Assembly (NCBI GenBank): GCA_038279365.1
Contig: JAYODI010000150.1
Coordinates: 1 to 6,784 of the forward strand
Direction: 5' to 3'
Length of the DNA: 6,784 bases
From: Candidatus Latescibacterota bacterium
Lineage (GTDB): Bacteria; Latescibacterota; UBA2968
Shown here: piece by piece, positions 3,001 through 6,000 of the stretch
Numbering within the stretch: the stretch's first letter is position 1
How the letters are laid out: each line of letters opens with the position of its first letter
Program-made: the position numbers

Positions 3001-6000
3001 GTTGGTGACAAATACATCTTGGGGATGCCAAAACGTTGCTTGTGTGGCGGGGCCACCATCACCTGAATAACCATCTATACCGGTGCCAGCAATGGTTGTG
3101 ATGACATTGGTTTGTGCGTCTACTTTTCGGATGCGGTTGTTTTCTGTGTCTGCGATAAAGAGGTTGTTATTGGCATCTATGAAAACACCCAACGGTGCGC
3201 CCAATTCGGCTTGGGTTGCTTGGTTGTTGTTGCCACTATATCCGTGACCACCATTGCCTGCAACGGTTGTGATGATGCCTGTTTGTGGGTTGATTTTGCG
3301 AATGCGCTGATTGTGTGAGTCGGCAATATAAACATTGCCTGCTTGATCAACAGCAAGGCCTTGAGGATAGTTTATTTGGGCTTGTGTTGCGGCTTGGTCA
3401 TCTCCATTATAACCCAATGAGCCAGTTCCTGATAGAGTGATCAGTTGTGGCTCTGATGTTTGTGCCATTGCCGAGTTGAAATGAATGCTGAAAAAGAAAC
3501 AAATTAAAAACCAATACATATTTGCCTCTGATTTTTTGAATAAAAAAAGTTCCGACTTGCTAATAATAATACCCTATATGTGGATAGACAGGCAATATAT
3601 TTTATTTAATAAACTTAATGAAATAAAGAATTAAAATCTGTACGTACTTTGTGAAATTTTGTAGGTACTTTTGCTTACAAAAGCAAAAAACGCTGTAATA
3701 TTGATTGAATATTTCATGTATTTATTAGGATTAAGGTTTTTATAAATATATAGTTAATAGAATTTTTTTACGTAAACATAAATTTATACAAAACAGTCTG
3801 AAGCAAATAACCTCAGACCGTTTTGTAGGATTTACACTTTGGTGATTCTCAACGCCATAAATGGTTTGCTGGGTACTTCAAGATCAAATGTGCCACTGAA
3901 GGTGCCGTCAACGGGGGTGGTGGTCATTTCCCACGTGTCGATGATTTCGATTTTGAATGAGATGTCTTCGGGCAGTTTGAGGGGTTTAACTGCAGATTGG
4001 TGTGGGCCGAGGTAGGCGAGGTAATATTGGTTGGGAATGCCAGCCGCGGCAATGCCAATGTTGACGGGGTCGATGGGGCCGGGGCCTGCTTCCATAATGT
4101 CGCGTAGAAATTGAATGCGTTTGGGGCTGGTGCCGTGAAGCACGCCGCCTTTGCTCCACCAGAGAATGTCGTCGGGGTGCAGGTAGGTTTCGCCGTGGCC
4201 CACGTAACCGCCACTTGCAAACCCGCTCCAAAAGCGTTTGGTGAGTTCTTGGCCTGTGATATTGCCCCAGCCTTGGTGAACGTTGCCTTCGTAACAACAT
4301 TCGTCGTCTACGGCGGGTTTGTTGTATTGGTTTCGCCAGGTGGGCGATTGGCCGGGGTCGGGGCGTTGAATGCTGCTGTGGGTGACCCAGGGTTTGTTGT
4401 GGTCATAAAATTGGCGGCAGTTGTGAATGCCACGCAGGTGTTGAACGGGGTCGTGGGTTTGCACGATGCGGAAGAAGCGGTCCCAGTCTTGTTCGGTTTT
4501 GGCTTTCATGAGGTCGTATTCGTTGGCGAAGGACCACCAGATGTTTCGGTAGGCGGCGAGGCGGGCGACGGTGTATTTGAGGTAGCGGTCGTCGGTTTCG
4601 GCGTCCATTTCTTTGAAGCCCCAGCGGTCGTAGGGGTGAAAGAGAATGAGGTCGGCTTCGATGTTGAGGTCGCGTAGGTCGGCAATTCGTTTTTCGAGGT
4701 GGTGCCAGAAGGCGGGGTTGAAACGTGTAAAGTCCCAACCGGTTTCGGGGGTGCCTTCGAAGGGGTAATATTCGGGTTCGTTGCGGTTGTAGGAGTAGTG
4801 TTTGGGGAAGACACACATTCTGATTTTGTTGAAGGGGCCGTCTTTGAGGGTGGCGAGGGTTTGCTCTTCGAGGGTGTCGCCTTGGTGGTTCCAAACGTAA
4901 CAGGTGGTGCCAAAGGAGTAGTGAGGGGTGCCGTCTTCGTATTGGAAGTGGAAGGTTTTGTGGACGCGTACGGGGCCGTGGTTGTTGCCGGTTGCGGGGG
5001 TGACGGTGAAGGTGCCGGTTTGGTTGTTGAGGGATTCGATGTTGCTTTTTGTGGTGTAGGTCCAATCGCCTTCGGTGTCGGGCATGAAGCGGATTTTGTA
5101 GGTGCCGTTGCCGTCGTAGAAACCGTCTACGGGGACGGTGCGGTTTTTTTGTTTGAAGTCGGCGGTGAGTTGGACTTCGGTGAAGGGGTTACCTTCTTGG
5201 GGGCCGGTTAGGGTGGTTTCGAAGATGGTCCAGCGTTCTACTTGTTGCATTTTCTGTTCTCCTTTGGAAAGGCAATTTTTGATTTGTTGAGTAATTAAAA
5301 AGATAATTATATTGCCTTTTTGATTGTATGCCTTCGGCGACTTACTTTTTTTCAACAGCAAAAAAAAGTAAGCAAAAAATGCCGTCCCTCAGGTGCCGGG
5401 AGGGCTGATTTTCCGCAAATACCGTTTGAGGGTGCAACAGGGTATTTGGCCTGTCAGCTCAGATGTTTTTAAGAAGATCAAAGCTGGACGGAATGGTGCG
5501 GAAAATCATGATTGTTTTGGGTGATGGGTTTGTGGGCTGTTTTGTTTTTTATGTGATAGATATTAAGGTTGTAGTCCGTAGGACTTTTGTAATTGTAGCG
5601 AGGGAAATTATTCCCTCGCTACAATTCGGTACATCTTAGACCGCGTAAGCCACAGAGCCATCATCGCGAAGGGGGGTGTTGATTTGGGTGAGGGGGGCGA
5701 AGGGGGTTTTGGCGATGAGGGTGTCGTCGAGTTCTACGCCGAGGCCAGGGGCTTGGGGGATGGGGATGTAGCCGCCTTCGCGTTTGTAGGAACATTTGTA
5801 GATGGCGTTGTTTTCGGCTTCGTCGCGTTTGGTGTATTCTTGGGTGACAAAGTTGGGGATGCTGGTGTCGAGGTGGAGCGATGCGGCGGTGCCAATGGGG
5901 GTGAGGAAGTTGTGGGTGACGACGGCAGAGTGATACGATTCGGCAATGGCAGCAATTTTTTTGCAGTGGGTGATGCCACCGGCCAGGGCAATGTCGGGGC

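Follow-up and report, generated by a model that had tools for sequence, protein, structure and literature searches.

The locus studied here lies in a gene-free stretch (5328-5525) of a Latescibacterota contig and belongs to a family of intergenic repeats, called repA below. It raises the question of what such a repeat is: a DNA element that spreads on its own account, a family of RNA genes, or a signal kept by the host. Latescibacterota are a widespread group without cultured members that degrade polysaccharides of marine and sediment origin; to our knowledge, nothing has been described about their non-coding elements, and a literature search found no relevant paper. The window that was analyzed is the whole contig (6,784 nt), so the contig coordinates used in an earlier note on this DNA equal window coordinates.

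The repA core in the window was matched by our covariance model on the plus strand over model positions 1-198 (226.8 bits), giving a unit of 198 nt at the coordinates above. Loose ends of metagenome contigs place the boundaries of the repeat at 5324-5329 and 5517-5525, and the extent of 5325-5527 given by the earlier note agrees with both. That note had also counted at least 53 copies in the genome, 30 of them full; the multi-copy nature was borne out by 42 BLAST matches, by 85 hits of iterated nhmmer (40 of them near full length) and by at least 74 covariance-model matches, for which 150 of approximately 3000 candidates were scored. The window copy and five divergent copies had zero matches at E<=1 among the 4227 models of Rfam release 15, the same outcome as before. 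repA is an undescribed repeat family; its parts and neighbors are listed in Table 1.

Table 1. The window copy of repA, its parts, and the features adjoining it.
Feature	Position	Strand	Evidence
T-rich lead-in, loosely conserved	5316-5327	+	Stacks of 40 and 68 copies show ~12 weakly conserved nt ahead of GCC
P1, small hairpin GCC-TNC-GGC with flanking conserved T.G	5329-5339	+	96.6% / 94.7% of cells paired
P2, 12-bp A/T-rich hairpin (5341-5352 with 5361-5372), loop CAACAGCA	5341-5372	+	11/12 pairs doubly changed
A-rich spacer CAAAAAAT	5373-5380	+	Both alignments keep an A run in their consensus
P3, G+C-rich hairpin (5381-5388 with 5398-5405), conserved 9-nt loop CTCAGGTGC	5381-5405	+	99.4% paired, 6/7 pairs doubly changed
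P4, 5' strand of the 10-bp long-range helix	5407-5416	+	Partner 5498-5507; 98.6% paired, 9/10 pairs doubly changed
3' domain interior: conserved junction AAAT, P5, variable stretch, P6, conserved GCTGGACGGAAT	5417-5497	+	
P5	5420-5423 with 5431-5434	+	79% / 73% paired
P6	5447-5450 with 5483-5486	+	88% / 79% paired
P4, 3' strand	5498-5507	+	Pairs with 5407-5416
Tail TGAT..T-run..GTGAT	5508-5525	+	TGA of the last GTGAT >=90% conserved in 32 copies
repB doublet: two hairpins of a REP-like family separate from repA	5573-5624		54 nhmmer hits in the genome
Left neighbor, apiosidase-like glycoside hydrolase gene (DUF5060/Apiosidase/DUF5605)	3832-5250	-	Pfam; transcribed away from repA
Right neighbor, enolase-superfamily (MR_MLE) gene	5636-6763	-	Pfam; convergent with the repA plus strand

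The model structure comprises six helices. In an alignment of 47 copies from this genome, 95.4% of the cells were paired, as opposed to at most 55.5% when the alignment was slid, and 31 of 41 pairs were doubly changed; 56 copies from other genera gave 93.8% as opposed to at most 54.7%, with 36 of 41 pairs doubly changed, both alignments being fitted to the model and containing kin copies that are not independent. None of 500 shuffles reached any of the five fold measures. The long-range helix and the three hairpins are robust, whereas the two inner 4-bp helices, P5 and P6, are weaker (73-88% paired). P2 is paired in 97.9% of the cells in this genome and is Watson-Crick in all 662 of 662 cells from other genera, and one subfamily has swapped the whole P4 helix (GATTTTCCGC/GCGGAAAATC versus G-CACAGCGC/GCGCTGTGC). 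Among the unpaired positions, the middle base of the P1 loop is variable (T, G, A or C), the P3 loop motif CTCA..GCC is conserved across families, and CAAA, CCT and G positions are invariant in the 3' domain interior. The pair types in P5 and P6 are C-G, U.G and U-A; these two helices carry most of the G.U pairs and are the least secure ones. With MAFFT followed by RNAalifold on 32 copies of mixed subfamilies, misalignment of the P2 subtypes limited the recovered structure to 19 pairs.

The pattern of substitutions at single loci was determined for 11 orthologous pairs of copies. Of 421 base pairs that could be compared, 359 are identical and 62 have changed: 26 on both sides, 18 on one side while still pairing, and 18 are broken. 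Pairing is hence kept in 44 of the 62, while the unpaired columns of the same copies differ by 16-62%. The repA fold is clearly under selection, which is visible even at single orthologous loci.

repA is confined to part of the class. Our own covariance model identified it in multiple copies in 52 of 132 class genomes: in 27 of 30 genomes of family f1, 21 of 22 of f2 and all three of f3, but in none of the 76 genomes of f4. The spread over two related families and a third, with a fourth lacking the element, is the pattern described before. The core claim of the earlier note, a multi-copy intergenic element of ~200 nt in these families whose structure, as RNA or single-stranded DNA (ssDNA), is selected, has thereby been reproduced with an independent model and alignments. 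Five f2 and f3 genomes carry 31-77 copies each at E<=1e-5. A motif scan of species genomes yielded 53 loci, 17 of them lone chance matches in unrelated taxa in which nhmmer detected no element. No viral contig contained the motif and no plasmid sequence matched repA; the sole phage match, a 56-nt A/T-rich partial one, carries no weight.

The copies are old, and near-identical ones are absent: among 45 copies, no pair exceeds 90.7% identity, and the median pairwise identity is 62.8%. Thirteen sister-MAG loci map with both flanks to a single contig of this genome, and 11 of them hold an element here as well. A genome of genus g3 has a repA copy behind the stop codon of the orthologous enolase-family gene, in the same relative orientation. 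The orthologous copy of a sister genome carries the other P2/P3 subtype, and the build of repA is mosaic, with small nested hairpin inserts. One orthologous locus shows a clean presence/absence of 234 nt, and a second filled and unfilled locus was found too. No target-site duplication is visible at these two loci, where the flanks are only ~70-75% identical. The 234-nt indel takes in ~13 nt upstream of the core, and the lead-in is probably part of a ~235-nt unit that is gained or lost. The neighboring repB doublet is missing at the orthologous locus of a sister genome. The repA copies are mostly inherited in place, swap segments, and are occasionally gained or lost.

repA is probably an interspersed repeat constrained by its fold. 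Our main reading, to which we assign a probability of about 0.45, is that of a long-lived, lineage-specific, non-autonomous repeat of the ERIC/BIME kind, combining a DNA-level hairpin cassette with an RNA-like 3' domain. The element would then consist of two parts: a portable 5' cassette (P1-P3), followed by a 3' domain that the long-range helix closes. The cassette may act as ssDNA, for which we see slightly less than an even chance; the nearly pure Watson-Crick, strand-symmetric helices suggest that, once folded, it could serve as a handle for spreading or recombining the element. For the 3' domain we put the chance that it acts as RNA at even: covariation paths rich in G.U, conserved bases in junction and loops, and the better fold of the plus strand are consistent with an RNA-type fold that would act upon plus-strand transcription. 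In this genus the copies are almost confined to the G+T-rich strand, which would serve as template for the lagging strand and match the sense of co-directional transcription. This strand carries 76 of 85 copies (~90%), as compared with 57% of ORF calls and 33 of 47 tRNAs, in an extremely skewed genome.

The evidence on the acting strand is not uniform: the plus strand of the window is favored by the 3' domain and by the inner helices, and P2-P4 are strand-symmetric. The cassette has no plus-strand advantage (its plus-strand fold is the lower one in 14 of 45 copies); the 3' domain folds better on the plus strand in 41 of 45 copies, partly because the composition of this strand is G+T-richer. 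Single-sequence folding selects neither strand nor molecule (z = -3.4 for plus RNA, -5.2 for minus RNA and -5.7 for plus DNA). Over all modelled pairs, G.U exceeds A.C by 158 to 18, and in six copies on the other replication strand by 17 to 1.

This G.U excess could also point to a family of small RNA genes with their own promoters, the whole 198 nt acting in trans or in a ribonucleoprotein. The multi-helix fold with loop and junction bases conserved in three families, the long persistence without any transposase, and a replication co-orientation exceeding that of tRNAs would all fit such genes, as would repC, a sister repeat family whose copies end with a hairpin and a T run in the same sense. 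We nevertheless regard this explanation as rather unlikely. In P2-P4, G.U pairs are all but missing and are nearly matched in number by A.C pairs (G.U to A.C is 32 to 6 in this genome, 12 to 5 elsewhere), which is atypical of RNA helices, and each genome has 50-80 paralogues. A conserved promoter was not found upstream of the copies, where conservation extends over only ~12 nt. The Bacteroidota-type motif TAnnTTTG is not enriched there (1% versus 1% in the background), and a single sigma-70-like match in the window (5279-5307) is at chance level. TTTG within 9 nt upstream is enriched (44% versus 13%), which may simply reflect repeat sequence. When window positions 3900-6700 were compared with metatranscriptome run X20, one RNA contig was found that spans only 6305-6479, outside repA, so that this comparison speaks neither for nor against transcription of repA; no joints across repA occurred in the contigs of X20 and three DNA runs over the same positions. 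A guide-like function was rejected, as the variable regions of 45 copies matched other parts of the genome no better than shuffles did (median best score 30.2 and maximum 34.2 bits in both cases).

Alternatively, repA could be a DNA repeat that is entirely selfish or neutral, of the REPIN or MITE sort; a trans-acting enzyme would move it as folded ssDNA, and it would lack any RNA or host role; the fold would be kept only since unfolded copies could not be copied or converted. The dispersed intergenic copies in either orientation to genes, the sharp ends, the presence/absence polymorphism, the mosaic build with nested inserts and the strictly Watson-Crick P2-P4 are in line with this, and in this genus the strand bias resembles that of ssDNA transposons. 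Modularity extends to repC: the P1-P3 cassette also heads ~19 repC copies, and none of eight repC loci was matched in Rfam. Several observations make a purely selfish repeat unlikely, namely the absence of near-identical copies, the conserved unpaired motifs, and the orthologous loci that keep pairing while their unpaired bases diverge. Nor was a matching enzyme found. Hairpins of the repB type border the IS200-type Y1 transposase gene at C91:7966-8397, whose contig has no repA hit; a second Y1-like gene (contig C63) has no adjoining repA. The Y1_Tnp domain is present in 18 of 30 genomes of f1, 15 of 22 of f2, 3 of 3 of f3 and 26 of 76 of f4 (63 of 132 reported overall), and is absent from two single-contig genomes, G045 and G048, each with at least 19 repA matches. 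No TnpB, IS110-type transposase or reverse transcriptase domain was identified in the 98.5%-complete assembly, which may miss repeats. None of 55 scanned neighboring proteins belongs to a transposase or integrase family, and no repA copies enclose a gene. The caveat of the earlier note that no transposase is linked to the element therefore still stands. Since a mobilizing enzyme was not found, we can only infer the role of the cassette as a handle.

Membership in four known classes of elements is not supported, on these and further grounds. Membership in REP/REPIN-RAYT systems is contradicted by the flanking of Y1 by repB, by the distribution of Y1, which does not track repA, and by the unit of 198 nt with six helices, only a few tail-to-tail pairs of which occur. 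A MITE is not supported either, as inverted repeats are not seen at the ends (by inspection of 32 aligned copies, with no separate repeat search, the 5' consensus TTGCCTTCGGCG is not complementary to the 3' ..TTTnnGTGAT) and an autonomous relative with the same ends was not found. An IS200/IS605 PATE or omega-RNA scaffold is not supported given the lack of a TnpB domain, the unlinked Y1 and the lack of an Rfam IS605-orfB or HEARO match. For an integron attC site, the best integrase candidate (at C128) scores 223 bits and is below the family cut-off of 265, and the copies are dispersed among ordinary genes; one repA copy, at C114, directly precedes xerD, which is an isolated case.

The strand bias allows two further explanations that involve replication. 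In the first, which we consider quite improbable, repA would represent a new class of host-kept single-strand signal, the top strand folding on the exposed lagging-strand template or in RNA made from it; the cassette would give priming, restart or recombination a strand-specific handle, with the 3' domain as an RNA-like cargo. If true, this would be a dispersed chromosomal counterpart of plasmid and phage initiation signals, with loci fixed across an order. In the second, repA would be a host-kept DNA signal acting on the lagging-strand template while it is replicated, either as a chromosomal equivalent of single-strand initiation or primosome-assembly sites or as another polar signal of replication or recombination. 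The 90% of copies on the G+T-rich strand here, a similar proportion (32 of 36) in two sister MAGs, the good DNA fold with strictly Watson-Crick helices and the persistence of copies in place agree with such a signal. It is very improbable, however, as other genera show little of the strand lock: with the origin taken to be at dnaA, their five complete genomes have 83 of 136 copies co-oriented with replication (51-74% per genome). In addition, adjacent copies in opposite orientation occur, and copies are unevenly clustered, for example ~17 in 110 kb of G005. Local skew around the copies of genus g6 is too weak for a reading: by G+T share (3-kb flanks, one best copy per genome) 3 copies fall on the richer strand and 14 on the poorer one, 3 being unclear, and by the sign of the GC skew the copies of G048 divide 14 to 8. 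We know of no such dispersed chromosomal replication signal.

A cis-regulatory leader or riboswitch of adjoining genes, suggested by some copies that abut the start of a co-oriented gene, is contradicted by the copy contexts and hardly credible: the window copy is antisense to both neighbors, the 55 neighboring proteins belong to many unrelated families, and the contexts of 40 near-full copies (17 same/same, 10 opposite/opposite, 6 convergent and 4 divergent) do not differ from the background distribution over the four kinds of intergenic regions (p=0.26), with a similar mix in other genomes. The orientation of repA ignores the neighboring genes.

As repA is abundant, old and selected for its fold and lacks the usual marks of transposons, it bears on the question whether long-lived interspersed repeats of bacteria live as parasites, serve their host, or do both. 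Within the one element, the contrast between a Watson-Crick, symmetric cassette and a G.U-rich, strand-specific domain offers a testable split of DNA and RNA roles. The repA model is also of practical use: hundreds of loci can be annotated with it, and a repeat at which assemblies of these genomes break can be masked.

Among known systems, ERIC/IRU of enterobacteria is likewise an old intergenic repeat that occurs in either orientation, shows compensatory changes and has no known transposase. repA resembles it in age, intergenic location, orientation, frequent occupation of the same loci in relatives, and maintenance of the fold by compensatory change. ERIC, however, is a single imperfect palindrome of ~127 bp from another phylum, whereas repA has 198 nt, three hairpins and a long-range-helix domain, conserved unpaired motifs, and a cassette in common with a second family. 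With REP, BIME and REPIN sequences repA shares the dozens of intergenic hairpin repeats, the mosaic build, the vertical persistence and the ability to fold as ssDNA; unlike REPs, which are palindromes of 20-40 nt tied to RAYT, it is far larger, is no simple palindrome and has no linked Y1. Correia/NEMIS, BOX and RUP elements are similarly non-autonomous, multi-copy, intergenic and modular, and like them repA may be co-transcribed with its neighbors. These elements are marked by inverted repeats at their termini, by duplication of the target or by a parent insertion sequence, whereas the ends of repA differ, no duplication was seen at two loci with diverged flanks and a parent element was not found. 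HEARO/IscB and TnpB omega RNAs and IS200/IS605 PATEs are, as repA, structured non-coding sequences of ~200 nt in multiple copies with long-range pairing, and the transposons they derive from show a strand bias to the lagging-strand template; repA differs from them in having no Rfam match, no TnpB, no linked Y1 and no target-like matches of its variable parts. Single-strand origins (sso), ssi and primosome assembly sites of plasmids and phages are also orientation-specific folded ssDNA of 100-300 nt with conserved loops, but each small replicon has such a site only once, and its part in priming is defined, while repA is dispersed and chromosomal and shows strong polarity in just one genus. The present analysis adds to the earlier note the searches in which no linked transposase was found, the identity of at most 91% between copies, the inheritance at the same loci with segment swaps and occasional absence, the orientation independent of neighboring genes, the strand bias, and the cassette shared with repC.

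The window is an entire contig (C24) of assembly G000 (6.03 Mb, 199 contigs, 98.5% complete). Its copy of repA, a folded interspersed repeat of about 200 nt, is intergenic, with both flanking genes on the minus strand. A covariance model built from 12 copies sets the limits of the unit. At these limits contigs of three metagenome runs end (5324-5329 and 5517-5525), and the summed metagenome depth rises from ~9 outside repA to several hundred within. BLAST of the stretch against G000 gave 42 matches, nhmmer with the single sequence 69, and nhmmer after two rounds 85, of which 40 were near full length; the covariance model gave 74 among 150 scored of ~3000 candidates. 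An Rfam search of the window copy and five divergent copies found no family at E<=1.

Features of the window and an example locus of the second repeat family, repC
Feature	Position	Strand	Description
Large protein gene	637-3519	-	960 aa, NHL repeats and bacterial Ig/cadherin-like domains
Apiosidase-like glycoside hydrolase gene	3832-5250	-	left neighbour of repA
repA unit	5328-5525	+	limits by covariance model
P1	5329-5339	+	small hairpin
P2	5341-5372	+	12-bp A/T-rich hairpin
A-rich spacer	5373-5380	+	
P3	5381-5405	+	G+C-rich hairpin, conserved 9-nt loop
P4	5407-5416 paired with 5498-5507	+	10-bp long-range helix
Tail	5508-5525	+	GTGAT at its end
repB doublet	5573-5624		two hairpins, REP-like; 54 nhmmer hits in G000
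Enolase-superfamily gene	5636-6763	-	right neighbour of repA
repC example	G000:C73:13816-14090 (L131:117-390)		one of ~19 loci

Helix P4 encloses a conserved AAAT junction, the small hairpin P5, a variable stretch, the weak helix P6 and a conserved GCTGGACGGAAT. Subfamilies are set apart by swaps of whole helices, P4 being either GATTTTCCGC/GCGGAAAATC or G-CACAGCGC/GCGCTGTGC and P2 either long or short. In different G000 copies a ~30-nt hairpin module is nested, in either orientation, at three different sites of the 5' cassette (P1-P3): before P2 (C36, C34, C175), in the P2 loop (C111:26704-26928) and after P2 (C191, C103). Three further copies (C52:9079-9385, C7:27974-28286, C45:22672-23012) share an insert after P3; each yields two nhmmer hits ~20-60 nt apart and a model match of 286-315 nt against the usual 198.

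The fold was assessed on alignments fitted to the model and on related, hence non-independent, copies: standard pairs occupied 95.4% of cells in 47 G000 copies (40-55.5% with partners slid) and 93.8% in 56 copies from outside the genus of G000, covering three families (44-54.7% slid), with changes on both sides in 31 and 36 of 41 pairs, respectively, and 0/500 shuffles attained any fold measure in either set. By helix, 88-100% of cells were paired in P1-P4 and 73-88% in P5 and P6. Of the 421 base pairs that could be compared between 11 pairs of orthologous repA copies, 359 were identical; 26 remained paired after changes on both sides and 18 after a change on one side, while 18 were broken. 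Unpaired columns differed in 16-62%.

Within the class, 52 of 132 genomes have matches to the model (27/30 in family f1, 21/22 in f2, 3/3 in f3 and 0/76 in f4), which reproduces the distribution by family reported in the earlier note, where the labels f3 and f4 were exchanged. In five genomes from f2 and f3 the count at E<=1e-5 is 31-77 each. In genome G005, ~17 matches fall within 110 kb (G005:C1:4927183-5037301), all on the + strand, interspersed with common metabolic genes for an AMP-binding enzyme, an aldehyde dehydrogenase, a transaldolase and an HpcH aldolase. When one genome per species was scanned for an exact motif, 53 loci turned up: 36 were repA, all in two MAG records of Latescibacterota, and 17 were chance matches without repA. 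Searches of viral contigs, plasmids and phages found nothing, and searches of literature listings and the openings of abstracts brought up nothing on such elements in Latescibacterota.

The copies are diverged: among 45, the two most alike share 90.7% identity, and the median is 62.8% over all pairs and 78.5% for nearest neighbours. Thirteen loci of sister MAGs map by both flanks to single G000 contigs, and at 11 of them repA is present here. The window locus is common to the sister genome, whose copy has other P2 and P3 subtypes despite nearly identical adjoining coding sequence. In a genome of another genus repA lies behind the orthologous enolase-family gene in unchanged relative orientation. 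Two loci carry repA in a relative but not in G000; at one of them the two sequences differ cleanly by 234 nt, and no target duplication is visible.

One rival reading of repA is that of a purely selfish DNA repeat. No mobility protein occurred among 55 scanned repA-neighbour proteins (5 sulfatases, several sugar-acid enzymes, many further families, and 9 without a family). TnpB, IS110-type and reverse-transcriptase domains were not found in G000, nor was an integron integrase over the cut-off; a tyrosine recombinase (C128:85-1209) scores best with the integron integrase family, at 223 bits against a cut-off of 265. On C114 a repA copy (9625-9870) lies directly upstream of xerD (9892-10821). 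Of the two Y1 genes in G000, the one of IS200 type is flanked by repB and not by repA; across the class Y1 genes do not track repA.

A replication-linked host signal is another rival explanation. Strand skew in G000 is of the replication type, extreme and contig-wide: the G+T share, taken in 5-kb windows, has two modes (~0.40 and ~0.60), the 25 largest contigs show one sign switch, and GC skew near repA copies is ~0.3. The repA + strand falls on the G+T-rich strand in 76 of 85 copies (8 on the other, 1 unclear; binomial p = 2e-11 against 0.567). That strand carries 2636 of 4647 rough ORF calls (57%) and 33 of 47 tRNAs; for a different repeat, 35 of the 51 hits that could be scored fall on it. 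Since the skew is extreme yet only 57% of ORFs lie on the G+T-rich strand, codon use must be very different between strands. Two sister MAG records gave 32 of 36 copies on the G+T-rich strand (1 opposite, 3 unclear), with flanks of <=400 nt and several orthologous, thus non-independent, loci. Outside this genus the bias is weak: 83 of 136 copies listed for five complete genomes were co-oriented (14/22, 12/19, 7/11, 23/31 and 27/53), on the assumption that replication starts at dnaA and ends at the opposite point of the chromosome. In one genome of genus g6 the skew itself is only weak.

The remaining rival is a plain sRNA gene family. Over all modelled pairs, read on the window + strand, G.U outnumbers A.C by 158 to 18; mutation bias alone does not explain this excess, because it persists (17 vs 1) in six copies of opposite replication strand. 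Splitting by helix alters the picture: P2-P4 are nearly all Watson-Crick (P2 in 662/662 cells in other genera), with G.U vs A.C of 32 vs 6 in G000 and 12 vs 5 elsewhere. Wobble pairs lie mostly in P1 (one conserved T.G), P5 and P6, whose pair types are C-G, U.G and U-A, a series as in RNA helices. The + strand was the better fold in 41 of 45 copies for the P4-closed 3' domain, whereas for the cassette it was lower in only 14 of 45, that is, without + advantage; composition contributes to this difference. Folding of single copies gave no decision on strand or on RNA versus DNA. Relative to genes, 40 near-full copies were oriented same/same (17), opposite/opposite (10), convergent (6) or divergent (4), with 3 at contig ends; orientations in other genomes were equally mixed, and the kinds of intergenic region did not differ from background (p=0.26).

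The cassette also occurs elsewhere: ~19 short repA-model matches in G000 are heads of repC, in which P1-P3 as in repA are followed by a conserved C/A-rich body of ~180 nt, which opposes the local skew, and a terminal hairpin (CCCACC..GGTGGG) with a T run some bases on. Elements of repC are nearly always antisense to both neighbouring genes, with the 5' end ~70 nt or less from a divergent start codon; Rfam gave no match. Tail-to-tail pairs 100-300 nt apart, either repA with repC or two copies on opposite strands, occur in G000 (C49:8311-8818, C8:35356-35870, C113:8471-9022) and, for example, in G020 (2397920-2398590).

We propose a two-part model in which the 5' hairpin cassette would act at the DNA level and the 3' domain would be RNA-like. 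As to known systems, the repB doublet, missing at the orthologous locus of the sister genome, forms arrays with 10-nt tandem repeats on both sides of the IS200-type Y1 transposase gene, a REPtron-like locus (C91:7551-8587). The best place for repA itself is among the long-lived interspersed repeats of the ERIC/BIME type.
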